This document shows, piece after piece, positions 5,044 through 38,810 of a stretch of 63,828 nucleotides of DNA. Both the position numbers and the translations under genes were made by a program. Position 1 is the first letter of the stretch. Every line of letters starts with the position of its first letter. This DNA is from a virus (Duplodnaviria > Caudoviricetes): positions 1 to 63,828 of IMG/VR virus record IMGVR_UViG_3300020044_005158; one strand, 5' to 3'. The notes below the pieces were generated by a model. That model did not search any database, was not told the origin of the DNA, and saw only the letters and a list, made by a program, of their open reading frames with translations.

Positions 5044-8000
5044 ATGAACGAAAAAGCACTTCAAGACTCGTACAACATATTCAAAGCTCAGGGATACAAT
5101 AAATCTATTGAGGAGTATAAGACGTTATTAAAATCTAACGGAAACGCACTGAATGACTCTTATAAATTATTTAAGTCTAAGGGATATAATAAGTCTATTG
5201 ATGACTATAAAGTATTGATGGGAGTAAGTGGTGATCCTGTAAAAAAAAAAGAACCTACGGCATCAGTTTCTCCATCAGGTCAAAAACCTACTTCATCGGT
5301 TACTCCAGCCAAGAAGGCGCAACCGCAATCGGTATTTTTGCAAGACGCAGATACTGGAGGTAAGCTAGAAATACTTACTGGATATCCACAGAAAGAAGAT
5401 ATAGAATATAACTTTGCTAACGGTCAGTGGAGAAAAAGAAAACCCGGTCAAACATCTTGGTACAACATAACTAACGAGGGATCCATAAGTTCTCTTAATA
5501 AGTTCTTTAATAAAGAAAAGATTCCAGATAATAAAAAAAGTGTAGACCAGCAAGTAAGAGACCTTGAGGATTTAAGAGAGCTATCAGACCAAGAAACAGC
5601 TGATGCATTAGGGTGGTCATTAGAAGACCTTCAAAAAGCAAATAAAGGAACAAAGGTAAACAAGGTGAAAACTACAGGTGCTACTGTAGCTCCTAATATT
5701 ATCGAAGGAAAAGATGCTATATCAGTTCAAGCAAATAGCATAGCTAAGGCAAGAATAGAACTTGGCTCATCTGCAAATCAAGAAAAGATAAACGATAGAG
5801 CTAAATATCACGAAAATATAAATCTTCAGAAATATTTAAAGAACAAAGGGTTTGATGTAGATGTAAATGGAGATATCGAAAGTGATAAAACAAAGTCAGC
5901 TCTAGATAAGTTAAAGGCTATAGAAGAACTTAATGAAATAGAAGATGCAAACAGAAGTAAATTCATATCAAAAATAAATAGCGATATAACATCTGACATG
6001 TTATCTTCTCCTGAAAGTATTGATCAATTGAGATCAGAATTTTCTAAGAATGGATATGTATTTGAATCATTTGGTGGATCTATAGCTGGATTAGGAGTTG
6101 GATCTGGTAGGTATATAAAAGTAAAATATACCTTACCTGATGGTACAGAAACAAGAGAAGAGACATTCGATACATCTGATCCAGAAGCCAGTCGTAATAT
6201 GAGACTATTTATGTCTCAAACATTTATGAGTAAATCTGAAAAGGAGGCTATTATTGGAGGTGATGCACCTACTGACGAAATGGGAAGATTTGAGTATATG
6301 TCTTCTCTAGTCGGAAAAATGGCGGCTAATCCTAGTAAGTACGGAAGAACACTTGTATCTGATGAGTTTATTTCTAATCATATGAAAAGTACTTATCAGT
6401 ACTTGAAAGATGAACAAACAGGAATATCATTAGAATATGATAACTTAAAAAAGAGAATAGATCAATTTAAACTTAATCCTACAGAAGAAGAAAGACAGCT
6501 TATTAATAACAAAGTCCATGAAATATCTGTAAGGGAAATTAAGTTAAATGGACAATACGAAAAAGCCAAAGAAACTGAAAAGAATTTTTCTTCAATATCT
6601 GCAGCTTATGCAACTGAAATGGAGAAAAAGGGGGGATTTTTCACTGGATTAACAGCTCAATTTGCTAAGGGTGTTACTAGTATACCAAAAATGATGTTGA
6701 CCACGTCAGCAGATATACTTCCATATGTAGTAGATGCAGTAGATCCTATCACAAAGAATAGATTAAAAAATGATGGGTATTCAGATTCTGAAATAGCAGA
6801 CTATGCCTCAAAGGAACTAAAAAATACGGTTGTTAAAGAGATAGAGAAAGGAGTAGTAAACATAGGATCATTAGGTCAGACTACTGAAGAGTATTTACAG
6901 TCAGAAGATAGAGGTGTTTTAGAAAACACATTAGGATTTTTAGCTAATAGTATTGGGACTGGATTAAGTGGAGGCGGTAATGGCGCATTAACTAAACTTG
7001 CATTTTTTAGTCAGTCATATAATGGCATGTCAGATCAGATGACAGGACCTGAATTTGATAGGTTAACAGAGACAGAAAAGAAACTAATATCTGTACCTTA
7101 CGCATTGGTTATAGGTGGACTTGAAAGACTTGGATTTAAGTTTACAACGAGTACGAGTAAGAATCCTTTATTAAATAAACTAATAAATAATACTATAGCT
7201 AAGACATTTTCTGGCATACCAAAAGATGCATCAATACAAACAATTAATAGAGCTATATCGGAGAGTTTAACAGCTACTATGGCTCAAGCTGGACTAAGAG
7301 TAGTAGGTGGATCTATAGTAGAGGGAGCAGTAGAAGGCTCACAGCAATTAGCTGAGATATCTATAAAGAATATAGCTAACAGAATAATTGGAGAGGATGA
7401 GGATGGATTTGACTTTTTCAAAGATGTACCAGACATAACAACAGCTGAAGGAATTAAGGAAGCGTTAAAATTAGCGTCTGTAGATGCTGCATATGGCGCA
7501 CTAGGGGGTGCTATTATGTCAACTGGAGAAAATGCTGTCTCATCTATTAAAAATTATGGAATTAAGAAAGAACAAGAAAAAGATTTTTTAACGTTAAGAG
7601 CTACCCTTCTTGATGGTAATCTTAGAGCACTTCAAGATTTAGATATAGAAAGAAAATTATCTTATGGAGAGATCACTCAAGAAGAAGCGGATGAGATGAC
7701 CAACTCTATGAATAATGCTACATCAGCATTAGGAAAAATACCTGAGGGATTATCTACATCAAGAGCAAGAGAGTCTTTTGGTCTTTTGATTGAAAGAGAT
7801 AAATTAGAGCAAGAAGTTAAAGGTAAAGACGAAAACCTAGTTGTAGCTCAGAAGGAAAGAATTAAAGAAATTAATAACGAATTACAAACAATAAGCAAAG
7901 ATGCCGTTCAAGAGCAAGCAGCAGGTGAAGTTTCTGTACAGCCAGAAGCCACAACTAGCGAAGAAGTGGTCCAAGGAAAACCCAAATCAGGACCTGAAGT

Positions 8001-11000
8001 CGTTACCGAAGAAGGTAAAAAAGAAGAAGTAGATAAGAAAAAATCAGATAGAATATCAGAAATACAATCTATTTTAGCTAATGATGATGCTAAATTTGCT
8101 GAAGAAGGTCAAAGACCTTTACTGGCAGAGGCACGAGCTGAGTTAACATCTGAATTAGAAGGATTAAACCAAGAATCAACTACTAAAGCAGCTCCAGTTG
8201 CAGAAGTATTTGAATTTAATGGTAAAAAATACGAACTTACTAATGAGTCTGTAACAGATCTTGAAACAGGTAATCTTGTTCCAATTGAACTAGCTACACA
8301 AATTCGTGAAGAAGGAACTGTCGCAACCGAAGCTAACCAAGAACAGGTAGCAACCTTAAGAGCACAAGAGCAAGTAGAACTAGCTGAGGCTATACCTAAC
8401 ATAGACGAATATAAGGTTGATGGGAAGGTAGCCAAAAGTACTATGCCAGCTGATGTTTTGGCTAAGTATGAAGAGATATACGATAGGTATGACAAGCTAA
8501 TAACTCCTTTGTTAACTACTGCACAACCTATCACATCTAAAAATCAAGTCACTCTAGATAACTTCCAAGAATTAGAGAATCAAGCCGTACAGGAAGGAAA
8601 CGATACAAAGATAAAAACGCTTCGTGCTGCAAGAATGGTTGTAAAATCTCTTCCGGGAGTAAAGGTATTCATCCATAACTCACCTGAGGAGTACCAGCAG
8701 GCGTTAGCAGATGCATCTGGTGATTCCATTGATACTATCAAGTCAGAAGAAGCATCAGAGCGTTCATCCGGACAGTATGTAAATGGTGAGATACACGTTG
8801 ATGGAAGTATTGCAACAGAGCGTACAGTATACCATGAGGCATTCCATGATGCAATCCTAAAATCAGGACTGTCAGTAGAGATGGCTAAAGGGCTTCTTAA
8901 GATTATTTCAGACAAGAAAATCAAGTCTCAACTAGAGGCATTCATTAGTCAGTATGAGTCTAGTGAGCAGAATGAAGAAATGGTTGTTGAGCTTGGAGCT
9001 ATCATGGCTGAAGCAGGGACTGAATTGTCTACTACTAAACTTCAGCAGTTTAAGCAGTTAATAAATAAGTTAGCACAGAAGTTAGGACTTCCTGTAATGC
9101 TTCCAGCGTCAGCGGATCGTCAGCAGGTTGTTGACTTTATTAATACCATGTCGAAAGCAATTCGTACTGGACGTGCTGTTGATCTGAATATAAAAGGAGC
9201 AAAAGACAAGACAGGTATTACTGAAGAAATAAATCCAACTGCACCTGACACTGGTACAGGTGTTGATACATCATCATTAGAGAATAGAAAAAAATCTTTA
9301 ATACAAAACCTTGGGTTAGTAAGACAAAAAGAAATAACTCAAAGATTAAAGACTGGAATAAAATTATCAGATTTAGGAAGAGTAATATCTCACTTAACAT
9401 TCTCAGATAGACTTGTTACTGGAAAAGTTGGAGATAAAGATTATCTTGGAGGTATATTATTTGCAGCTGCAACTAATAGAGTATGGGCATCATTCTCTAA
9501 AGGAAGAGTTAGTTCTATAATAAATGGAATGCCTGTCAATAAGGATGGATATAGATATCTAATGCCAGCATTACTCACTGAACAATCTCACATGTCGAAT
9601 AAGGACATGATGAATACATCTCTTAAATTAGTAGAAGATGCTGTAATAAATGGAGATGTAGATTTTAACTCTGCTAACGACAGAATAAGAAAAGCATTAA
9701 ACAGAAAAGGACTAGAGAAGTATCTTGAAATATATAACAAATCTATTGGTGATAATATAACAGCTAAAAGTGTAAAGAATGCTATAGATGAGGCTATTGT
9801 AAATAGCGATAGTACATTTGAAAATAGAAAAACATTCTTAGAGGCATTACTTGGAAAGGCTGATATAGATCTAACTAAAAGATTTGGGAATCTTCCATCA
9901 TTTTCTGAATTAGCAAATGGACTTGCTGAACCAATAACAGAAGGACATGAATATGGTGATATACTTTTAGTTATAAGAACTAAGGGTAATCTTATTGCTG
10001 TTCAACCAAAAGAAGGAGATGCAGATTACCATCCATCTTATCCTTGGGTCATCAGATCAGTAGATGAAAATGGAGATATTTCTGATGTTGAAACATTAAT
10101 ATTTGATAAATCTTACAATGCTATAAATGTATTTCCTAAGGTAACAAATAAGATTGGTAAAACATTATCATACCAAGATTATGTTAACAAGTATGGAGAT
10201 AAAGCAAAATCAGCATATCTTGGATACATAGGAGGTAGATCAACTATGTCTACATCTTTGACTGAAGAAGTAAATATTGAAGCTGAACAAAAAGAAAAAG
10301 TAGCTGAAGTTTTTAAAGGCAGAAAGAAAAGAATGACTGAGCCAGTTGCTGGAAATAAATTATTCAATGAGCCACTTAGAGACGCGTCAGTTATTGCTAA
10401 AAAGTATTCAGAAAAGTCTGGAATAGAGTATGTTACTGTAGAAAAGATATCAAAGCTAGACGAGTCTAACTCTAAAGAAATTGCTGCTGAATATGATAAG
10501 ATGAAGAACGATCCTACCAATCCAGAGGTTAGGAAAGCATATGATGCAATGATAAAAGAGACTGCTGATCAGTATGAAGCAATACTGGATGGCGGTTATG
10601 TTGTTGAGGTTAATAATAATGAGCCATACTCTAGCTCTGAGGATATGATACAAGACCTTCGTGATAACAAGCGAATGAAAATATTCTCTACTGAATCTGG
10701 ATTTGGGGATGATCCAATTACTGACGAGCAAAGAGCAGAGAATCCATTACTACAAAAAACAAAGTACTCAGATGTAAATGGAATTCCATTACTAGCTAAT
10801 GATTTATTTAGATTTGTACATGACTTCTTTGGTCACGCAAAATTAGGAAATGGATTCGGACCTATTGGAGAGGAGAATGCATGGAGAGTTCATTCTGTTA
10901 TGTATTCAGATTTAGCTAGAAGAGCTATGACATCTGAGACTAGAGGTCAAAATAGTTGGGTTAATTTTAGTGGAGCAAATGACGCTGTATTTAAATTAAG

Positions 11001-14000
11001 AGATAAGGCTAGAGCTCTTCGTAAGGAAGGAAAGATAGATGAGGCAAATGAGTTGATTGGTCAAGTATATGACGAGATGCAGTTTGCTGAACAGAAGGTT
11101 GGACTTATGCCTGAGTGGGTGTCAGAGACTGCACCTCGTAAAAAGCAAAAGTCTGGTGGAAAGAAAGTAACTGCCCAAAAAGTAAATCAGTCGTTTAAGA
11201 ATCCTGTAAAGAAGGTGATTGTGAATGACCGTACTGCCTTAAGAAATCAACTAAGACTTGAGGCTAGGGCTGCTCGTGAGTCACAAATGGACTTAAAGCA
11301 GAAACAACGTGCATTAATTGTGGCTATCAATAAGATGAAGCGAGGTGGACTTATTACGGTAAATCAGGCATCTATACTTGCTAAAAGACTAGCGTTCGTT
11401 AATGTAGACAATCCAATAATGATCGAGAGATTTTTAGGATACGCTGATAAGTTATTTGCAGATGCTGAATATTCAGCTAAACTTAATTCTGCATTTGAGC
11501 TACAAAAAAAGATAAAGAGAGCTATAAAATCTGATAAGCTTCAAGCAAGTGTTGTAGCTACAGCGAAAGCATTTTCTAAATTGAATCCATCATTAGTTGA
11601 GGATATTGATACATACATTGAGAATGCTGAAAAGGTAATGAACGCAGTTAAGTCGTCTCGTGCAAACGTAAAAGATGGTGTAGATTTAGATAATATTATT
11701 AAAGGCAAAAAGGCAGATATTGCTATTGAATTAAAGACTGCAATGGACTTTAATGAGATTGGTGAGTACACAGATAAAGCTATTGAGTTAGAGAATGAGT
11801 ATAGAAAGAATGAACTAATGTCTATCTACAAGGACTTATCTGATGCAAATATTATCACTAAAGAAATGTCTATCGAAGAGATGAAGGAAGTGATTACGTC
11901 AGTTATGAATGAATCTAAGGATAAAATGCCAGCAGAAGAAAAGCTTGCATACATTATGTCTTGGCTTGGAAGTACTGCAAATGTATACCGTCCAATCATT
12001 AAATCAATGCTTAATGGACGAGATCCGTTTACAGGTGATGATGTAGTTCTTTCTGAGAAGCAGGATCAAATAATTCGTAACTTCCTAAAAATAGATGTCA
12101 CTAAGATGGATGTTCGTGAGGCAATGTTTGTAGTTGAGGCTATGGATAATTTCATTACAAATAAAATCACTGATGGACTTGAGACTGTAATAGCTAAATA
12201 TGAAGGAAACTTAGAAGCTAAGAAATTATCTGATTCAGGATTCAAGACTAGATCCATGAATACATTTGGAAATGAAAAGTCTAAGTTAGGTACTGGTAGG
12301 TTATGGGCGCAAGAGATGATGTCATTAAAGACATTGACTGACTTGGTATTTAGAGGTGTAAATAACGCTCAGAAAATAACTAAGGCAATGGGTCTTTCTG
12401 CATACGAGAATGGAGTAGCACTTGCAAATAGATTATGGAACAACAGCATTGATTCATACTATAACGAGTTCAAGAAGACAAAACCGAATGGAGAAAAGTT
12501 TATGTCAGCAAAAAATATATACGAAAGAGGTATGTATGCTGCACTTAAAAGAACTATTCCGGGAGATCAGAAAGTACAAGATGCTGAATTAAAAAGAAAG
12601 ATTAAGCTAATCAACGACAGTATTTCCACATTGATGAAAGGATCTGAAAGAGATCAAGATATTGCAAAGATGTACTCTGAGGTTGCTGAAAAACTTGGAA
12701 TAAACGAGTCTGGAGTTACAATGCTGGATATAGAGTCAAGAGTTGATTCAAACAATATGAAGGCTGTAGACTGGTGGGTTAGTAAATGGGCTGATAACTA
12801 TAGCGAACTAGCTGATGTAAGTCAGAACGTTTACAATACAATCCTTGATAGAGATATGTACTACACACCTGATAAGTTTTCTAGCACAAAGCCAGTAGAG
12901 AAGTCAGTAGAAGAAGTATTTGAATCAGGAGGTGCATTCGGACAGTTTTTAGATTATGAGTACGACAAGAAATCTGGTGTATTAATGCCTTCAGCAAAAC
13001 AATCATCAATGGCTGAAGGAAGATTCTTGGACCTTAATTTCGATATGAATAACTCAAAATCTTTGAAGGCTGCATTGGTTGACATGAAGACGGCTACATC
13101 CATTCGTAAAATCAGCGGATTCTTAAAGTCAAAGGACTGGGAGAAAGTGATGACGGCAAAAGAAGATAGAGATGTATTCAGAAAGAAGATTGATAACTAC
13201 ATACTTCGAAGCAGAAATAAATCAACTGGTGCAATCGATAATGATTACGCACAGGCATTAGATAAGGCTGGTAAGATTTGGGCATCAATGGGAGCTGCTA
13301 GAGCATTAGGTGGATTTACTCAGCCATTAAAGCAAACGATTCCAGTATTAATGAGTACAATCATTAACTCAGGAAGAGTTGATTTTGCTATAGGTAAGGA
13401 TCAGAATGATTGGATTAGTAAAATAGGTAGAGGGATATCAAACAGAGGGCTTGAATCTCAGGCTGGATTTGAGGATGCAAATAGAATGATGGATGATGCA
13501 GCAAATAGTGGTAACGCTGTAAAGATATTGGCTGCAATAGAAAAATCTAATAGGTTTGTTTTAAGAGCAGTTCTTGCGAAGCCTGACGTATTTATAGCTA
13601 GATCATCTTTCATATCTTACTACAAGCAGTATATGGCTAATAATGGGATGTCTGAGGATATTAATTACTCAAAGCCAGAAGATGCAAATCAAGATGCATT
13701 GGATTATGCTCAACGAATGATTGATCGTCAGCAGAACGTATCTGATGGAGATTTAGCTGGTGAATTTATGTCATCTAATAAACCATATAAAAAATTAGCT
13801 AAAAATATATTATTACCATTTGCTTCATTTGTGATTAATCAGAAGTCAAGAATGTTTACTGATTTCGCAACACTTATGGGTAAGGAGGTATCAAGTCAAG
13901 ATAGAGTATTAGCTATTAGATCATTAAGTGGATTAGCCGCTGAAATTGCTGTATTTAACGCTATAGCATTTGGTATAAAGGCAGGTGTAATTGCAATAGC

Positions 14001-14850
14001 TGGAGAAATAGTACCTCCAGCTCCAGAAGATGAAAAAGAAAAAGAAAAAGAATTATGGAAGCAGTGGGGGTATATTATTGGAAACGTAATTGCAAGTATT
14101 ATTTCTCCAGTTCCATTTACAGATAGTTCTGTAATATCATCTTCTGACTGGGTATATAAGCAGGTAAATAAAATTGCCAAAAGCTCTAGTGGTGAGACGA
14201 AAGAGGCTCTTAAGAAGCATAATGAGGAGAGAGAGTTAAATGGTCAGAGACCACTTGTAGGTAGAGAGGCTGATAGATGGATGGAGAATCATCAGGAAGA
14301 AGATCGATTTAAGATTCGTGCGTATACTAATGAAAACATGGCTGGTACGTATACCATTACATATAATAAATTAGTTGAACTTAAGAAATCATATAACCTA
14401 GCATTCAATGGTGAGTACGAGCAAGATATGTATGGTAAGGTCCAGAAGAAGTATATTCTAAAGGAAGATAGAGACGTTCTTAAATACATGTGGATTGGAA
14501 ATGCAATAACTAATATTGCAGGATTCCCGTCAGAGTATAGCTCTGTAAATAGAAGAGTTGAGAATAACGTCAAGAAGAAGAGTGCAATTTCAGAAAAGAA
14601 ATTTGATACATACAATGATGTTGTTAGCCACAAAGGAGGAGAATTAAATAAGGCAGAATTGTTCTTGGTAAAGAACATGGATGGAACTAAGTCTCAAAGT
14701 GGAACTGATCGTGTAATTGAAGAGATCGAGTGGATTAAAGAGAATGGAGGATTTGATAATGAACGTCAGATGGACAAGTACATTGAAATATATCAAAAGG
14801 AGAAGTCAGTTAGTTCGTCTGACATGTATGAGATTAAAAAAATAAAGTAA
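5044..14850 (+). CDS. Giant polyvalent virion/ejection protein (3268 aa) with zincin-like HExxH domain
   Basis: YHEAFH..EEMVVE motif; HDFFGH..GEENAW..SETRGQ domain; PG-binding-like LQKYL..GF..NG..T segment; tandem N-terminal repeat. Confidence 0.75.
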   Translation: MNEKALQDSYNIFKAQGYNKSIEEYKTLLKSNGNALNDSYKLFKSKGYNKSIDDYKVLMGVSGDPVKKKEPTASVSPSGQKPTSSVTPAKKAQPQSVFLQDADTGGKLEILTGYPQKEDIEYNFANGQWRKRKPGQTSWYNITNEGSISSLNKFFNKEKIPDNKKSVDQQVRDLEDLRELSDQETADALGWSLEDLQKANKGTKVNKVKTTGATVAPNIIEGKDAISVQANSIAKARIELGSSANQEKINDRAKYHENINLQKYLKNKGFDVDVNGDIESDKTKSALDKLKAIEELNEIEDANRSKFISKINSDITSDMLSSPESIDQLRSEFSKNGYVFESFGGSIAGLGVGSGRYIKVKYTLPDGTETREETFDTSDPEASRNMRLFMSQTFMSKSEKEAIIGGDAPTDEMGRFEYMSSLVGKMAANPSKYGRTLVSDEFISNHMKSTYQYLKDEQTGISLEYDNLKKRIDQFKLNPTEEERQLINNKVHEISVREIKLNGQYEKAKETEKNFSSISAAYATEMEKKGGFFTGLTAQFAKGVTSIPKMMLTTSADILPYVVDAVDPITKNRLKNDGYSDSEIADYASKELKNTVVKEIEKGVVNIGSLGQTTEEYLQSEDRGVLENTLGFLANSIGTGLSGGGNGALTKLAFFSQSYNGMSDQMTGPEFDRLTETEKKLISVPYALVIGGLERLGFKFTTSTSKNPLLNKLINNTIAKTFSGIPKDASIQTINRAISESLTATMAQAGLRVVGGSIVEGAVEGSQQLAEISIKNIANRIIGEDEDGFDFFKDVPDITTAEGIKEALKLASVDAAYGALGGAIMSTGENAVSSIKNYGIKKEQEKDFLTLRATLLDGNLRALQDLDIERKLSYGEITQEEADEMTNSMNNATSALGKIPEGLSTSRARESFGLLIERDKLEQEVKGKDENLVVAQKERIKEINNELQTISKDAVQEQAAGEVSVQPEATTSEEVVQGKPKSGPEVVTEEGKKEEVDKKKSDRISEIQSILANDDAKFAEEGQRPLLAEARAELTSELEGLNQESTTKAAPVAEVFEFNGKKYELTNESVTDLETGNLVPIELATQIREEGTVATEANQEQVATLRAQEQVELAEAIPNIDEYKVDGKVAKSTMPADVLAKYEEIYDRYDKLITPLLTTAQPITSKNQVTLDNFQELENQAVQEGNDTKIKTLRAARMVVKSLPGVKVFIHNSPEEYQQALADASGDSIDTIKSEEASERSSGQYVNGEIHVDGSIATERTVYHEAFHDAILKSGLSVEMAKGLLKIISDKKIKSQLEAFISQYESSEQNEEMVVELGAIMAEAGTELSTTKLQQFKQLINKLAQKLGLPVMLPASADRQQVVDFINTMSKAIRTGRAVDLNIKGAKDKTGITEEINPTAPDTGTGVDTSSLENRKKSLIQNLGLVRQKEITQRLKTGIKLSDLGRVISHLTFSDRLVTGKVGDKDYLGGILFAAATNRVWASFSKGRVSSIINGMPVNKDGYRYLMPALLTEQSHMSNKDMMNTSLKLVEDAVINGDVDFNSANDRIRKALNRKGLEKYLEIYNKSIGDNITAKSVKNAIDEAIVNSDSTFENRKTFLEALLGKADIDLTKRFGNLPSFSELANGLAEPITEGHEYGDILLVIRTKGNLIAVQPKEGDADYHPSYPWVIRSVDENGDISDVETLIFDKSYNAINVFPKVTNKIGKTLSYQDYVNKYGDKAKSAYLGYIGGRSTMSTSLTEEVNIEAEQKEKVAEVFKGRKKRMTEPVAGNKLFNEPLRDASVIAKKYSEKSGIEYVTVEKISKLDESNSKEIAAEYDKMKNDPTNPEVRKAYDAMIKETADQYEAILDGGYVVEVNNNEPYSSSEDMIQDLRDNKRMKIFSTESGFGDDPITDEQRAENPLLQKTKYSDVNGIPLLANDLFRFVHDFFGHAKLGNGFGPIGEENAWRVHSVMYSDLARRAMTSETRGQNSWVNFSGANDAVFKLRDKARALRKEGKIDEANELIGQVYDEMQFAEQKVGLMPEWVSETAPRKKQKSGGKKVTAQKVNQSFKNPVKKVIVNDRTALRNQLRLEARAARESQMDLKQKQRALIVAINKMKRGGLITVNQASILAKRLAFVNVDNPIMIERFLGYADKLFADAEYSAKLNSAFELQKKIKRAIKSDKLQASVVATAKAFSKLNPSLVEDIDTYIENAEKVMNAVKSSRANVKDGVDLDNIIKGKKADIAIELKTAMDFNEIGEYTDKAIELENEYRKNELMSIYKDLSDANIITKEMSIEEMKEVITSVMNESKDKMPAEEKLAYIMSWLGSTANVYRPIIKSMLNGRDPFTGDDVVLSEKQDQIIRNFLKIDVTKMDVREAMFVVEAMDNFITNKITDGLETVIAKYEGNLEAKKLSDSGFKTRSMNTFGNEKSKLGTGRLWAQEMMSLKTLTDLVFRGVNNAQKITKAMGLSAYENGVALANRLWNNSIDSYYNEFKKTKPNGEKFMSAKNIYERGMYAALKRTIPGDQKVQDAELKRKIKLINDSISTLMKGSERDQDIAKMYSEVAEKLGINESGVTMLDIESRVDSNNMKAVDWWVSKWADNYSELADVSQNVYNTILDRDMYYTPDKFSSTKPVEKSVEEVFESGGAFGQFLDYEYDKKSGVLMPSAKQSSMAEGRFLDLNFDMNNSKSLKAALVDMKTATSIRKISGFLKSKDWEKVMTAKEDRDVFRKKIDNYILRSRNKSTGAIDNDYAQALDKAGKIWASMGAARALGGFTQPLKQTIPVLMSTIINSGRVDFAIGKDQNDWISKIGRGISNRGLESQAGFEDANRMMDDAANSGNAVKILAAIEKSNRFVLRAVLAKPDVFIARSSFISYYKQYMANNGMSEDINYSKPEDANQDALDYAQRMIDRQQNVSDGDLAGEFMSSNKPYKKLAKNILLPFASFVINQKSRMFTDFATLMGKEVSSQDRVLAIRSLSGLAAEIAVFNAIAFGIKAGVIAIAGEIVPPAPEDEKEKEKELWKQWGYIIGNVIASIISPVPFTDSSVISSSDWVYKQVNKIAKSSSGETKEALKKHNEERELNGQRPLVGREADRWMENHQEEDRFKIRAYTNENMAGTYTITYNKLVELKKSYNLAFNGEYEQDMYGKVQKKYILKEDRDVLKYMWIGNAITNIAGFPSEYSSVNRRVENNVKKKSAISEKKFDTYNDVVSHKGGELNKAELFLVKNMDGTKSQSGTDRVIEEIEWIKENGGFDNERQMDKYIEIYQKEKSVSSSDMYEIKKIK
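7901..8032 (+). CDS. Nested small basic protein MPFKSKQQVKFLYSQKPQLAKKW... (43 aa), +1 frame inside the giant gene
   Basis: ATG after A-rich leader, TAG at 8030-8032; resembles the widespread phage MPFKS..Q..L....P..A..W small proteins. Confidence 0.7.
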   Translation: MPFKSKQQVKFLYSQKPQLAKKWSKENPNQDLKSLPKKVKKKK

Positions 14851-14852
14851 AG

Positions 14853-14882
14853 AAAAAGCCCCGATCGAAACCGGGGCTTTCT
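14853..14882. terminator. Intrinsic terminator between the convergent arms
   Basis: AAAAAGCCCCG..CGGGGCTTT hairpin with A and T flanks. Confidence 0.75.
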
Positions 14883-14885
14883 ATT

Positions 14886-14976
14886 CCTTAAGTATGTAAT
14901 GTTCGGATTATATCTCGTCATTCTAATCAGATTCTTTTCTTAACCAAGCGCTTGGTGCCTGAACCGATACTTAAGG
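14886..14976. ncRNA. Candidate multi-branch structured RNA
   Basis: CCTTAAGTAT/ATACTTAAGG closing stem enclosing further hairpins. Confidence 0.35.
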
Positions 14977-27766: not shown

Positions 27767-27926
27767 ACCTTTCTGATTATATAACTAAATGCTGGAATGA
27801 CTACCACTAGACCAAATCCATAAAACGCTGAGTACTGAAATGAATACATGATGCCTGAAATAACTGCAATATTCATTAGCAGAACTATAATTAAGTACTT
27901 TACCATATCAATTAGTTTTAAATTAG

Positions 27927-27997
27927 TAGTCAGGACAGGAATCGAACCTGTATACTCCGGCTTAAAAGGTCGGGCTTTACCATTAAGCCACCTGACT
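27927..27997 (-). tRNA. tRNA-Lys(TTT)-like, atypical
   Basis: AGTCAGG/CCTGACT acceptor, GCTT/AAGC D-stem, CTTTTAA anticodon loop, ACAGG-TTCGATT-CCTGT T-arm; no encoded CCA. Confidence 0.7.
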
Positions 27998-33112: not shown

Positions 33113-33171
33113 GATTTCTAGGTTTTAAAATTGTTTTTTTTCTTTATGCTATAAATAAGACAAAGAGAGTT

Positions 33172-33348
33172 TTAACTCTCTCTTGCTTTTAAATACTCAG
33201 ATTGCGCTCTCATAGCAATGAGTTTTAGTTTCAATGCATCTATTTTCTCATACATAGATTCACTAATCCACCATTCTTCAGCATCTACTTTGTTTAAAAG
33301 GAATTGCATTAATTCTATTTCTTCATAAGTTAAGGTTATCTTTTTCAT
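33172..33348 (-). CDS. Hypothetical early protein (58 aa, MKKITLTYEE...)
   Basis: Manual translation; repeated leader motif. Confidence 0.55.
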   Translation of the reverse strand: MKKITLTYEEIELMQFLLNKVDAEEWWISESMYEKIDALKLKLIAMRAQSEYLKARES

Positions 33349-33386
33349 AATTTCTAGGTTTTAAAATTGTTACAATTTGATTACTG

Positions 33387-33584
33387 TCATGATTTAATTA
33401 TTTGATTGATTAACTCACTTTTAAATGGTTCTAATAATTCAGTTGATGGAATTATTTTTTCACCTTCAACTAAACGTATTTCAGATAAATTATCTTTACT
33501 CCATAATCCTATTTCATTATTTGAATATCTTAATGGAGTATTGTCTTTTTTGATTACTACAAAATCAGTTGGGAATAATATCAT
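33387..33584 (-). CDS. First early gene, hypothetical
   Basis: Repeated leader motif; directly downstream of the hammerhead. Confidence 0.55.
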   Translation of the reverse strand: MILFPTDFVVIKKDNTPLRYSNNEIGLWSKDNLSEIRLVEGEKIIPSTELLEPFKSELINQIIKS

Positions 33585-33612
33585 AATTTCTAGGTTTTAA
33601 ATATTTACGTTT

Positions 33613-33661
33613 GCTTTTCATCCTTTAGGAATCATCAGTCAGCATACACATGCTGAGAAGC
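33613..33661 (-). ncRNA. Type III hammerhead ribozyme
   Basis: Minus strand GCUU-C-UCAGCA-UGUGUA-UGCUGA-CUGAUGA-UUCC-UAAA-GGAU-GAAAAGC: full core and three stems. Confidence 0.8.
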
Positions 33662-33856
33662 GAGGGAATTGGCTTAGACTTTTCAGCCCCGTTCCCTCAT
33701 TCGGACGTCTTAAATGATTTCTTGTTTCAATGGTATATTGTCGAAAGTATAGAGAAACAATAAGGTCTATACTACCAAGGCTTTCCACCTCTAGTCAAAC
33801 CATGTAAGGAACTATTTTACTGACTATATTTTGTTTGTTGCCTATCTCATCAACCG

Positions 33857-33873
33857 ATATGTGTAAAGAACTT
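33857..33873 (-). promoter_or_regulatory. boxA-like antitermination motif AAGTTCTTTACACATAT
   Basis: Resembles boxA (GyTCTTTaACA) within the early leader. Confidence 0.4.
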
Positions 33874-34062
33874 ATTAATTGTATTCGTATTGTATTCTTG
33901 ACTGAGTTACTCACTACTCATTAAGACTGTGCTTGTACCATGCCTTAACTCTTCGTACTTCTCTCACCTCATGTAGCATACTGATTCATCATCGTAACAT
34001 CTGAAAGGCTTGTCATTTGTAAGCTAAGTAAAAGTGAGAACGTTTTCCCGACTTGCTTGAAA

Positions 34063-34094
34063 CAAATCTACTACAACTGTTTTGATTACACAAG
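34063..34094 (-). promoter_or_regulatory. Early promoter (-7 TAGATTTG, -33 CTTG, 20-nt spacer)
   Basis: Bacteroidota promoter geometry at the head of the leftward arm. Confidence 0.6.
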
Positions 34095-34130
34095 TTATTA
34101 TGTTAAATAGAACGAAAATAATTGCATAAA

Positions 34131-34184
34131 TTCGACGAATGACCTAATTCCTTCGACGAATGATAGGAATTCTTCGACGAATGA
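34131..34184. repeat. Three TTCGACGAATGA direct repeats, 21-bp period
   Basis: Copies start at 34131, 34152 and 34173. Confidence 0.85.
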
Positions 34185-34445
34185 TTAAAACGATTTAACA
34201 TCATTACTTAAGTCATTGAGAATGAATGAATTAACTCCCCTTACGCGTGCGCGTGTATATGTGCAGGATTTAATTAACGGGAGAATGGGGGATTGGTGTG
34301 GCTATTCAAACAGTCAGCAAGTACGAACGCATGCAAAAGTATCAGGCAAGATAACGCCAAATGAATGGATTGAATTGGATCCGGCAGACAGGCAGAAAGA
34401 ATGCATGACAGCATAAACGCTTGGGCATCAGCGCATTAGCAATGA

Positions 34446-34473
34446 CTGTCTTATAATATACATTATGTTAAAT
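34446..34473 (+). other. dif-like XerC/XerD recombination site
   Basis: CTGTCTTATAA-TATACA-TTATGTTAAAT: 11-6-11 layout, perfect XerD arm. Confidence 0.8.
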
Positions 34474-34762
34474 AGAACATGAATTGATGCGTAACGGTAT
34501 GGATGTCAGGCAGTTATACTGTATGACTTAAAGTAATACATCAAGCCTCAACACATGCATAACATAGGCAACATGTAGGTACATGCATCAGCGCATAGCT
34601 AGTGTACGTAAGGCATGCAGACAAAAAGGTAAAAAGTTAGGACGAAAGTCTGAAAACAAGCACCCCCCCATGCCGATTTTGGACGCTTTCCTTTCGCCCG
34701 GGCGCGCGTGAAATGTATATATAACGTAAACTCTCCGCACGTGCAATAACTCAAAAATTCTT

Positions 34763-35072
34763 TCTGACGTCAAATGTTAAAAAATGACGTAAAACTGACG
34801 ATACTGACGAATTACTGACGAAGTGCCCCTTCTGTAACCCTTGATTTTGCTGGATTCCTGACGGTACTGACGATTACTCTCCTATTAAGATTTCTTTAAA
34901 TAAAAAATAAGGTAAATAGTATATATATTATTAGAATATAATAGGGGACCACTTCGTCAGTATCGTCAGAAACTCAGTAAAACTGGGCATCTTGAAAATC
35001 CGTATCGTCAGTTTTTCGAGTTTTACGTCAGTCATTGATACTTTTACGTCAGGAATCGTCATTTATCGTCAG
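34763..35072. repeat. Iteron-like element B: TGACG x7, AT-rich core, CGTCA x7 (candidate replication origin)
   Basis: Same architecture as 29041-29257; core is its reverse complement. Confidence 0.7.
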
Positions 35073-35116
35073 TTTGCGAAAGTGTGATCGGCTCCGCTTC
35101 GTTAGAGATAATTCAT

Positions 35117-35124
35117 TATCTTTG
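35117..35124 (+). promoter_or_regulatory. First rightward -7 box TATCTTTG (TAnnTTTG also at 35310, 36530, 37200, 39618, 39780, 42867, 45414, 52471, 55874, 56482)
   Basis: Recurrent TAnnTTTG just upstream of + strand genes. Confidence 0.7.
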
Positions 35125-35147
35125 CGGTATAATTAAAACATTAGATC

Positions 35148-35303
35148 ATGCAAAAAGCTACAAATAGAGATTACCCACTAGCTCCTACATTCTCAAAAGA
35201 TGACAAGGAGAAGAGAAAGGAGAAGAGAAAGCAAAATAAAATTGAGAGAAGCTCAGGTCTTGAGTACGAGCCGAAGGTACGTAGACGTCACATGAAGGGA
35301 TAA
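35148..35303 (+). CDS. Small basic protein (51 aa, MQKATNRDYPLAPT...)
   Basis: Manual translation; own promoter. Confidence 0.55.
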   Translation: MQKATNRDYPLAPTFSKDDKEKRKEKRKQNKIERSSGLEYEPKVRRRHMKG

Positions 35304-35346
35304 TTTACTTATCTTTGCACCTGTATATACATTAAAAAAATAAATC

Positions 35347-37223: not shown

Positions 37224-38810
37224 ATGATAGTCAAAAAAGTACATTTAGGTGATTCTGGACAGGAGAAACTAAAGAAAGGAATCAGAATATTAACGGAGGC
37301 GGTTGCTTCTACGATGGGTCCGGGAGGTCGTCCAGTAATTATGGAGTCCGAGCACCATGTAGGAGGCAAGACGATCACAAAGGACGGTGTGTCTGTAGCC
37401 AAGGCGGTGAATGTGTTTGATGCGACCGAGCAGTTGGGCATCACGATAGCAAGGGAGGCATCAGTACAGACGGCTACGGCAGCTGGCGACGGAACCACTA
37501 CAGCTTTGGTGATACTACAAGGAATGCTAGATGCAGCGGATGCACACCTTACTGACAAGCATAACGTCACTCAGGTAGTTCGTCACATCCACACGCTGAC
37601 GGACGATGCGATTAAGTTTCTAGACAAGAAGTCCAAGAAGGTAACGAAGAAGAAGTTAGATCAGGTGGCAACTATTTCTGCCAATAACGACCCGGAGCTA
37701 GGAAAAATGATCTCCGATTTGTTTGGGAAGGTTAAGATTGTAACTGCCGAGATTGGAAAGCAGCCGTTCGTTACTACGGAGATTATTGACGGGATGAAGT
37801 TCGACCGTGGATACGCGAACGAGTACTTCATCACGGACCAAGAGCGTGAGGTAGCGGAGCTAGATAATCCGTTGATTCTCTTGACTGACATGACGATCGA
37901 GAAGCTGGGTGGACACCTTGAGTCTATACTGGGTCCAATCATCCGTGAGAACAGGTCGTTACTAATCATTGGCAACATGTCTGATCAGGCTCGTGCGACA
38001 CTAGCGGCTAACAAGATGAAGGGGGTAATCAAGGCGGTTAACGTGATCCCACCAAACTTTGGATACCGTCAGAAGGAGATGATGAAGGACTTGGAGGTAG
38101 TTCTTGGGGCGAAGTACTACTCGGAGGAGACTGGAGACGGACTTCACAACATTACGCTAGACGGACTAGGTACAGCGAAGAAGGTAATTATATCGGCAGA
38201 CAGGACAGTTATCTACCGTTCAGATGAAATAGATCAGGAGCCACTAAACAATCGCTTAGAGGAGCTTAAAAGCAAGATGGCGTCCGACAAGACGTTAGCC
38301 GAGAAGAAAGACACCGAGTCAAGGATAGCAAACATTGAGGGAGGAGTTGGTATTGTGCATGTAGGTGCGCCATCAGAGATTGAGACGAAGGAGTTATATG
38401 ACCGAGTTGACGATGCTGTGCGTGCTGTAAGTGCAGCCATTCAGGATGGAATACTTCCGGGTGGAGGTGCAGCTCTGATGTATTACACTCAGAGAGGACC
38501 AGTACAGACGGATGAGAACAAGTCAGTTGCTGAGAGCATTTTTTATACTGCACTAGCGGCTCCATTCAATCGAATCATGCTAAATGCTGGGCTTCATCCA
38601 AGTGAGATACGTTCAAACATAATGGAGGTCGGTGACTTCGGGTACGGGTTCGACGTGAAGAACGAGAAGTACGGGATGATGGAGAAGATGGGAGTGATTG
38701 ATCCTACGATGGTAACGAAGAGCGCACTGAAGAATGCGGTATCTGTAGCCACTACGATCATGTCAAGCCAAGTAGCAATTGTAAATATGAGAGAGAATGA
38801 GAGCTTATAA
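37224..38810 (+). CDS. groEL: Phage chaperonin GroEL
   Basis: ITKDGVSVAK, GDGTTT, GMKFDRGY, RVDDA, PGGG, GVIDP. Confidence 0.95.
   Translation: MIVKKVHLGDSGQEKLKKGIRILTEAVASTMGPGGRPVIMESEHHVGGKTITKDGVSVAKAVNVFDATEQLGITIAREASVQTATAAGDGTTTALVILQGMLDAADAHLTDKHNVTQVVRHIHTLTDDAIKFLDKKSKKVTKKKLDQVATISANNDPELGKMISDLFGKVKIVTAEIGKQPFVTTEIIDGMKFDRGYANEYFITDQEREVAELDNPLILLTDMTIEKLGGHLESILGPIIRENRSLLIIGNMSDQARATLAANKMKGVIKAVNVIPPNFGYRQKEMMKDLEVVLGAKYYSEETGDGLHNITLDGLGTAKKVIISADRTVIYRSDEIDQEPLNNRLEELKSKMASDKTLAEKKDTESRIANIEGGVGIVHVGAPSEIETKELYDRVDDAVRAVSAAIQDGILPGGGAALMYYTQRGPVQTDENKSVAESIFYTALAAPFNRIMLNAGLHPSEIRSNIMEVGDFGYGFDVKNEKYGMMEKMGVIDPTMVTKSALKNAVSVATTIMSSQVAIVNMRENESL

Follow-up and report, generated by a model that had tools for sequence, protein, structure and literature searches.

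A candidate untranslated early leader closed by a hairpin-hammerhead module in a podophage of the Flavobacteriia-phage type

Introduction

Hammerhead ribozymes have been known in phages since 2011 and their role is still open. In their report on hammerheads in phage and prophage transcripts, Perreault et al. 2011 proposed that these ribozymes process long phage transcripts (PMC3088659). The same source describes, for the haloviruses HF1 and HF2, a hammerhead 13 nucleotides (nt) before the first open reading frame (ORF) of an early transcript, with a mapped 5′ end at most 3 nt from the cleavage site (PMC3088659). A 2019 review still treats the role of phage hammerheads as unsettled (PMC6765202). 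Here we analyse a region that ends in a hammerhead in a tailed phage (Caudoviricetes), the IMG/VR record IMGVR_UViG_3300020044_005158. The whole stretch analysed, called the window below, is a viral record of 63,828 bp that is complete and has direct repeats at its termini. The region of interest lies on its minus strand at positions 33657-34060. An earlier reading of the letters alone, the original prediction, had seen there a structured leader of about 400 nt between an early promoter and a hammerhead, and had suggested a ribozyme-released non-coding RNA (ncRNA) or an antiterminator. Our own best explanation, to which we give about an even chance, is that the region is a cis-acting untranslated leader of the leftward early operon which would be severed from the mRNA by the hammerhead.

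Two other kinds of RNA invite comparison. RiboJ-type insulators place a hammerhead before a ribosome-binding site, where it cuts away the variable RNA in front of it, so that the mRNA always has the same 5′ end. Unlike RiboJ, the module in the window is natural, and the fragment to be released carries the accessory hairpin, which precedes the ribozyme instead of following it. RAGATH-type motifs are RNAs found next to hammerhead and twister ribozymes. The window leader is like them a non-coding neighbour of a phage hammerhead and unlike them in showing no excess structure and no other Rfam match.

The site itself is one that the descriptions of phage hammerheads (PMC3088659, PMC6765202) would lead one to expect, namely an intergenic or 5′-leader position before the first early ORF, with multiple copies flanking genes in some phages. 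In contrast to those described there, the subtype in the window is a compact type III ribozyme whose stem I carries a UGUGU(A/G) loop, whose stem II has 4 bp, the first of them U-U, and whose stem III is short and open. It further differs in that it regularly follows a strong hairpin, stands about 30 nt before an ATG and belongs to the host clade Bacteroidota. This compact subtype may already be listed in the supplementary alignments of Perreault et al. 2011, and we do not claim it as new.

The antiterminator idea leads to the boxA elements of ribosomal RNA (rrn) operons and of the lambdoid nut sites, at which NusB-S10 is loaded in antitermination complexes. Published boxA sequences are UGCUCUUUAACA for E. 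coli and AUGAUCUUUGAAA for B. subtilis, the latter described as binding NusB (PMC13753749). The window leader resembles these systems in carrying a short U-rich GUUCUUU in a single-stranded portion of the promoter-proximal leader of a long operon (PMC13753749, PMC10250234), and relatives of the window carry near-consensus copies of the rrn motif of the host family. It is unlike them in that the window copy lacks the 3′ half and that the leader would be cut by a ribozyme and not by RNase III.

Results and discussion

The terminal hairpin and the hammerhead

The most distinct part of the leader is its 3′ end. Here GAGGGAA (33698-33692) pairs with UUCCCUC (33668-33662) around GGCU-GAAA-AGUC, which gives a stable hairpin with an inner GNRA-capped arm at 33657-33702 (minus strand, like all leader features below). 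With a z-score of -3.02 it is the sole leader segment that stands out in folding, and only 1 of 200 shuffles folds as well. The hairpin abuts the 5′ strand of hammerhead stem III and overlaps it when extended. The arrangement is thus as originally described, a GAGGGAA/UUCCCUC stem with a GAAA-capped inner hairpin next to the ribozyme, and it is conserved in the related locus L004. In this relative, whose GroEL is 57% identical, the hairpin is almost identical in sequence, apart from an inner loop that reads GUGA in place of GAAA and an insertion of 3 nt.

Directly 3′ of the hairpin follows the core CUGAUGA...GAAA of a type III hammerhead (33610-33664), which is matched by Rfam model RF00008 (E 6.3e-4 over 1.4 kb, 0.029 over the whole window) and borne out by covariation. 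The NUH site is CUUC^U with C at H17, and cleavage is predicted after C33657, that is between 33657 and 33656. L004 keeps the hammerhead; its core there reads CUGACGA, and both strands of stems I and II have changed. The ATG of the first early gene (region 33582-33584) is found 31 nt past the ribozyme.

To place this ribozyme in a family we searched viral contigs with a pattern that fixes only loop and core letters and obtained at least 120 stretches. The tallies of 100, 106, 105 and 87 instances given here are all drawn from the matches listed among these. In the 100 distinct instances listed, stem I has seven of seven pairs in 97, stem II three of three in all, and stem III at least four contiguous pairs in all. 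As a control for covariation the arms were re-dealt among the 106 distinct instances listed. Stem I pairs at 6.97 of 7 positions, as against 4.31 after re-dealing; for stem II the two values are 3.00 and 1.86 out of 3, and for stem III they are 5.95 and 4.11 out of 7. H17 is A in 90 of these 106 instances, U in 11, C in 5 and never G. By this comparison all three stems of the subtype covary. We regard the hammerhead at 33610-33664 as a genuine type III ribozyme, a question that the comparison of relatives settles despite the low Rfam score.

The surroundings of the ribozyme are equally regular. In the 87 listed instances with enough flanking sequence, the next ATG-started ORF follows the ribozyme end at a median of 30 nt (interquartile range 26-37.5; window 31), the median distance from the end of the preceding ORF to the cut is 67 nt, and the 54 nt upstream fold with a median minimum free energy (MFE) of -17.1 kcal/mol compared with -7.4 kcal/mol for random windows (window -16.9). 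A helix of at least seven pairs occurs within 70 nt before the cut in 60 of the 105 instances listed; it overlaps the stem III strand in 33 of these 60 and abuts it in 11. Since the window fits this pattern of hairpin, hammerhead and ATG both in MFE and in the distance to the ATG, its GAGGGAA/UUCCCUC stem is the hairpin of the module. The distance to any upstream ORF is 617 nt as against the typical 67 or so, because the window module is the first after the promoter. This 3′ processing module is the solid functional part of the leader unit.

The same subtype also occurs in other settings. One IMG/VR contig (L013:218-1030, L014:9215-12085) has seven hammerheads of this subtype between consecutive small genes, and six of the seven follow a near-identical GC-rich hairpin, CTCCTGGCGC-loop-GCGCCAGGAG, and are followed by cctaggaa...ATG. 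A second phage group, with gene starts of the Shine-Dalgarno type, has a conserved leader of about 200-300 nt before its hairpin and hammerhead (L026:5623-5899, L031:158-434, L038:5424-5700, L042:692-968 on the minus strand, L128:3322-3598 and L142:5591-5867 on the minus strand). It follows a promoter region with repeated ATTTACA, and 23 of its 68 predicted pairs are compensatory; no Rfam family matches it. This pattern of changes marks a genuinely structured leader, with a ribozyme at its end. Type I hammerheads (RF00163; L042:399-463 on the minus strand, L031:1143-1207, L128:3880-3941) occur farther on in these early regions, which begin with a type III hammerhead. The one in L042 reaches 38.1 bits, above the gathering score.

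Promoter, coding capacity and folding of the leader

The leader is preceded by a Bacteroidetes-type promoter at 34063-34093 (minus strand), with the -33 element TTG at 34093-34091, a 20-nt spacer and the -7 box TAGATTTG at 34070-34063. The arrangement TTG-N19/20-TAnnTTTG, which is the Bacteroidetes housekeeping promoter form, is kept in the window and in three relatives, L002, L004 and L158. The -7 box reads TAGATTTG in L002 as in the window, TATGTTTG in L004 and TACTTTTG in L158. Judged from the position of the promoter, transcription would start near 34058, which agrees with the coordinates of the original prediction. A scan for sigma-70 promoters is uninformative here (11 found, 8.6 expected), and this promoter type is the wrong one for the host.

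The leader does not look coding. It was said to have no long ORF, and indeed no ATG-initiated ORF of 30 or more amino acids (aa) lies within it. All it has are two ORFs that start with GTG, of 39 and 49 aa; the longer traverses hairpin and ribozyme, and neither of the two has a PHROG match. The 5′ part of the leader, 33898-34062, is 93.9% identical to L002 over 165 nt. It is non-coding, since indels of 1 nt and 2 nt relative to L002 break the sole ATG mini-frame. A coding leader peptide was likewise rejected as the frames are broken between the window and L002. None of the neighbouring small proteins matches a PHROG, save for a weak primase hint for the first gene of L002.

Nor does the leader fold better than expected. 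For the 404 nt at 33657-34060 the MFE is -81.2 kcal/mol compared with a shuffle mean of -83.0 kcal/mol (z +0.33), and 60 of 100 shuffles are as good. The 5′ part at 33911-34060 gives z +0.53. The A-rich stretch at 33783-33900, which holds the boxA-like motif discussed below, is unusually unstructured (z +2.24); all of 200 shuffles fold at least as well. A search of 33200-34600 against Rfam 15 (E <= 10) returned only the hammerhead beyond chance-level matches, and searches at the gathering score likewise gave no other family for the leader. We thus find no support for a folded RNA of 400 nt; only the terminal hairpin stands out. As originally proposed, promoter, untranslated leader and self-cleaving element do form one unit, in which the promoter stands about 400 nt upstream of the hammerhead. 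It is the word "structured" that does not hold for this unit.

The 8-bp stem and the candidate pseudoknot

Every motif named in the original prediction is present on the minus strand at the place given there, and this includes a perfect 8-bp stem in which AGUAUAGA (33773-33766) pairs with UCUAUACU (33753-33746) across a 12-nt loop. The loop ends in UUGUUUC, complementary to GAAACAA (33728-33722), and UGGU/ACCA flanks the stem; 33722-33773 is a candidate H-type pseudoknot. These sequences are as described, but the pseudoknot finds no comparative support: the segment is missing in L004, and L002 has unrelated sequence there. The stem region 33718-33782 has z -0.88, with 38 of 200 shuffles as good, and a perfect 8-bp hairpin with a loop of 3-20 nt turns up in 228 of 2000 dinucleotide shuffles and 0.23 times per 404 nt genome-wide.

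The feature matters mainly for the view that the region makes a trans-acting or decoy ncRNA, either of about 400 nt or consisting of the 3′ part of about 240 nt (33657-33898), with the pseudoknotted 8-bp hairpin and the terminal hairpin as its core. Only 4 of 2000 shuffles combine such a hairpin with a 7-nt complement of its loop within 60 nt, and on steric grounds loops of these lengths are plausible for an H-type pseudoknot. Contigs of two other samples retain the segment 33582-33895 at about 95-97.5% identity, in one of them with unlike flanks. Moreover, the leader of the second phage group covaries over about 200 nt before its hairpin and hammerhead, so structured ribozyme-ended leaders do exist. 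However, the pseudoknot was chosen post hoc and its local z is the weak one just given, the adjoining 118 nt are unusually open, and L004 keeps hairpin and ribozyme without this part. We found no homologue beyond near-identical copies and no Rfam family match. Nothing speaks for the decoy acting in trans that was first proposed, and we judge this explanation as a whole to be very improbable.

A boxA-like motif in the open part of the leader

For a host-based view of the boxA-like motif we derived a model independently from the regions upstream of Bacteroidota 16S genes. The commonest non-trivial 7-mer there is GTTCTTT, found in 35 of 80 Bacteroidota 16S leaders, and GTTCWTTGA with at most one mismatch is present in 77 of 87. 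The variant of the Flavobacteriaceae is AAGTTCATTGACATATTGAA. From its position and its likeness to known boxA elements we infer that this 16S-leader motif is the Bacteroidota boxA.

The motif in the window, AAGUUCUUUACACAUAU at 33873-33857, corresponds to AUAAGUUCUUUACACAUAUC at 33857-33876 (minus strand), whose likeness to the Bacteroidota rrn-leader model is confined to the 5′ half of that model, AAnAAGUUCUUU. Aligned to model positions 2-13 only, and without the well-conserved GA, it reaches 5.3 bits (E 0.034 in a 501-nt search); by position weight matrix (PWM) its rank among the 127,618 positions of the genome is 41. Within the open segment it stands about 187 nt past the presumed start, downstream of the promoter of the operon of about 19 kb. 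The best PWM site of the window leader (5.3 bits, P 0.12) is this very motif. In L002 the best leader site reaches 13.3 bits (P 0.015), the top match of the locus, and 10.8 bits with the sequence-only model (R1). L004 has 4.5 bits (P 0.09) and L158 5.2 bits (P 0.03). Over the four related leaders the best-site P values combine to 0.0018 by Fisher's method.

Two further relatives carry strong copies. In MW202828.1 the boxA match scores 19.5 bits by PWM, the top of a 12-kb locus, and 12.4 bits with R1 (E 0.017 genome-wide). The leader there has about 370 nt and no hammerhead, and the match stands about 100 nt past a TAnnTTTG promoter. Cellulophaga phage phi18:3 carries a near-perfect ACAAAGTTCATTGACATATT (15.4 bits, E 0.002 genome-wide), which a gene follows after about 120 nt. 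The ORF-poor early region of this phage that contains it spans about 1.1 kb (L330, NC_021794.1 22450-23540, minus strand), and its annotated ORFs are only 33-45 aa long. The window copy, GUUCUUUACACAUAU, reads as the motif of L002 and MW202828.1, GUUCUUUGACAUAU, with G replaced by AC.

These matches bear on the proposal that the region is an rrn-like antitermination leader. The boxA would load NusB-S10 and Nus factors, the polymerase would read through the hairpin at 33162-33183 and along the 19-kb arm, and the hammerhead would then detach the leader. The model is built from host-clade rrn leaders only and finds its best sites in the four related leaders with the combined P given above; the copies in the leaders of MW202828.1, L002 and phi18:3 are strong; the window motif sits in the least structured part of the leader; and there is a terminator-like hairpin to be passed at 33162-33183. 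The window motif itself, however, is a half-match of low score and rank, and with default filters the boxA model reports neither this motif nor that of L002. The scores of L004 and L158 are no better than that of the window. Of five complete related genomes only two have a leader match, with phi38:1 and Gundel_1 showing none at E <= 1, and four other matches fall in coding sequence. The matches of Elemovirus are antisense in genes, and second matches of phi18:3 and MW202828.1 fall in coding sequence. By eye, for which no dedicated search was run, we recognised no boxB hairpin, no boxC and no N-like protein. The identity of the motif as the Bacteroidota boxA is in addition itself a matter of position and likeness. 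Of the boxA-like motif first reported, what stands is thus its strong counterparts in the equivalent leaders of L002, MW202828.1 and phi18:3, while the window copy amounts to the 5′ half only. The boxA idea appears reasonable for the phage group and weak for this genome. As an explanation of the window, antitermination survives as a rival that we hold to be possible but doubtful, and it would rest on the relatives rather than on the sequence of the window.

Relatives and the mosaic nature of the leader

Comparison with the relatives shows how variable this region is. L002, with a GroEL 99% identical, shares 34062-33898 with the window at 93.9% identity and then switches abruptly to unrelated sequence. 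Past 33898 it leads to a different first gene, and no hammerhead is found in the 359 nt visible before the contig end. In L004 some 220 nt are missing, the boxA-like motif and the 8-bp stem among them, and hairpin and ribozyme are kept. In L158 the same promoter stands only about 47-60 nt from the gene. Leader lengths among the relatives come to about 55, 250, 365, 370 and 400 nt. The junction of the L002 type at 33898 is also seen in contigs of two further runs, and a metagenome contig carries 33582-33895 at about 97.5% identity with both flanks unlike the window. The stretch between 33898 and the ATG thus behaves like a cassette that can be exchanged. (Each sequencing run used holds at most 0.20 of the sampled words, and all were kept as contigs.)

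Only two relatives of the leader can be aligned, L002 over the 5′ 165 nt and L004 over hairpin and ribozyme. Among these two, the sole substitution inside a predicted helix of the 5′ part is found in L002 and is uncompensated. Wider searches added little. A blastn search in distant mode with 33300-34500 gave no match in the phage collection. In viral contigs the hairpin pattern matched only the contig of L004, and so did the pattern of hairpin arm plus ribozyme. The operator pattern (see below) found the contigs of L002 and L004 and one unrelated high-GC contig. Of the 42 stretches that fit the promoter-box pattern, only L158, L015 and L148 are related. A metagenome scan returned ten stretches, the only related ones being L025, which is L004-like, and L016, with 71 nt of the operator region. 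Scans of genome contigs gave no match in one case and ten chance matches in another. With blastn and nhmmer of the leader against the collected loci we found no further homologue of 33724-33898.

Such a picture could also mean that the leader is a functionless mosaic spacer left by recombination at early-gene boundaries, that the motifs of its middle are due to chance and that only promoter and ribozyme module matter. The breakpoints are sharp, one falling at 33898 in L002 and in contigs from two runs and the other at the ATG at 33582 in L004 and in one run, the leader length varies from about 55 to about 400 nt among relatives, and remnants of gene starts (GCATGG) occur at comparable places in the window, L004 and L158. 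Against this, boxA-type motifs recur in the non-alignable parts of several leaders, and long untranslated leaders are retained in genomes that are otherwise tightly packed. We consider a mere spacer improbable.

Proposed course of events

We suggest that a cis-acting leader, severed from its mRNA, would arise in the following steps. The host RNA polymerase would start near 34058 at the Bacteroidetes-type promoter. It would then transcribe about 400 nt of non-coding, largely unstructured, mosaic RNA and finally the hairpin and the hammerhead. The hammerhead would cut after C33657. An active ribozyme must release a leader of about 400 nt with the hairpin at its end, and this hairpin-protected end would bear a 2′,3′-cyclic phosphate. 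The early mRNA would then begin with a defined 5′-OH end formed by the ribozyme scaffold, and the first ATG would follow 31 nt further on. The module of hairpin, hammerhead and start site could thereby act as a natural 5′-UTR and intercistronic processing unit, or as an insulator, and the degenerate boxA-type site in the open middle may load host NusB/S10. Cleavage in vivo, a stabilising or insulating effect and the loading of Nus factors are what we infer from the arrangement of these elements.

Several observations weigh against this course of events. The RF00008 score of 29.7 bits is below the gathering score of 48.5. Stem II of the window ribozyme opens with a U-U pair and not with the usual G-C, stem III has only four contiguous pairs, which puts it in the weakest class (11 of the 100 instances listed), and the upstream hairpin can extend and so sequester the 5′ strand of stem III. 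L002 in its visible part, MW202828.1 and L158 have no hammerhead, so the hammerhead is not obligatory for such leaders. A contig of an RNA library that runs across the cleavage site (33581-33700) shows neither cleavage nor transcription; together with 33791-33896 and 33877-33916 it belongs to the contigs of one such library that cover the region, which are not evidence of transcription. The pairing of hairpin and loop complement, though chosen post hoc, is rare by chance, so that there may be a folded element in the middle of the leader. Finally, the strong boxA copies in the leaders of the relatives suggest that the leader is more than a spacer.

The control region upstream

Upstream of the promoter, between the divergent arms, three exact direct repeats of TCATTCGTCGAA with a 21-nt period lie at 34131-34142, 34152-34163 and 34173-34184 (minus strand). 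They are conserved in L002 and L004 and are probably protein-binding sites, that is operators. The sequence GTTCTATTTAACATAAT occurs in two exact copies at 34097-34113 and 34462-34478 (minus strand), inside a 33-nt repeat that is 79% identical. One copy stands just upstream of the -33 element, where L002 and L004 differ in sequence. Adjoining the three operator-like repeats is a divergent ORF of 66 aa at 34216-34416 (plus strand) which has no PHROG match. Its first 45 or so residues are conserved in L002 and the frames diverge after; its product is a candidate small regulator. There follows an ORF-poor region of about 900 nt (34417-35346) which is crowded with CTGACGA repeats in direct and inverted arrays, densest at 34760-35075, and which contains a perfect 17-nt inverted pair at 34795-34811 and 34953-34969. 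The cumulative GC skew has its minimum near these repeats. The repeat region may be an origin or a multi-site regulatory array.

One might therefore ask whether the whole region acts at the level of the DNA, as part of a control or origin region of 1.8 kb (33585-35346) with arrays of binding sites, the RNA motifs being incidental. The skew minimum, the repeats of 21-nt period at 34131-34184, the inverted CTGACGA arrays at 34760-35075 and the presence of only one plausible ORF in these 1.8 kb would fit such a role. But the repeat arrays lie outside 33657-34060, and hammerhead and hairpin are features of RNA, with covariation. We give this possibility hardly any weight.

Genome, host and neighbouring genes

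The phage of the window is a podophage of the Flavobacteriia-phage type. Its large terminase (TerL) matches 87 phage records, 68 of them from Flavobacterium, 15 from Cellulophaga, two from Tenacibaculum, one from Maribacter and one unnamed, and the best match is MW202828.1 with 64.8% identity. AAA(C)CTAGAAAnnATG is common to the early gene starts, and a Shine-Dalgarno motif is lacking there, which fits a Bacteroidota host. The gene-start motif of the first early gene, AAACCTAGAAATTATG at 33582-33597 (minus strand), has nine matches with up to three mismatches in a motif count where 1.38 are expected, and seven of the nine are on the minus strand at 30.2-33.6 kb. The first early gene itself encodes 65 aa (33387-33584, minus strand). 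Just past the second early gene, at 33162-33183 (minus strand), a consensus scan only points to a terminator-like hairpin with a 9-bp stem and a T-rich tail, a possible early terminator.

Leftward genes run from about 34.1 kb over some 19 kb to a strong bidirectional terminator at 14853-14882, and rightward genes start at about 34.2 kb. This terminator, with 13 bp, was found by the terminator scan at the point where both arms converge. A weak match to the Rfam family "rimP leader" at 14836-14913 (35.4 bits, under the gathering score) coincides with it and is probably just the terminator hairpin. Among the other genes, an ORF of 3268 aa (5044-14850, plus strand) has as its sole PHROG match a family of unknown function; its product would be a giant virion or injected protein. 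Promoters for an N4-like virion RNA polymerase were considered and rejected, because this ORF has only that match and because the relatives of terminase and portal are Flavobacteriia podophages. A gene for a GroEL-type chaperonin is located at 37224-38810 (plus strand; PHROG 5725, E 6e-119), and a tRNA-Lys(UUU) at 27926-27997 (minus strand) lies inside the early/middle arm.

Conclusions

Transcription control in phages of Bacteroidota is, to our knowledge, almost unstudied, and in the literature searched we found no paper that links boxA or antitermination to Flavobacteriia phages. Near-consensus copies of the host rrn-type boxA are present in the long early leaders of several of these phages, one of them cultured (phi18:3). 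This allows a broader and more speculative idea, which we offer as rather unlikely. Flavobacteriia podophages might hijack the rRNA antitermination of their host through an open, rrn-mimicking leader that carries boxA only and does without an N-like protein, and so render the polymerase resistant to termination; in some lineages a mobile hairpin-hammerhead cassette (33582-33898) would then sever this leader. If true, the Nus-loaded leader and the translated message would get separate fates.

The regularity of the module of hairpin, hammerhead and start site gives a testable model, in which the 5′ end of the downstream message would be defined and the 3′ end of the upstream fragment protected.

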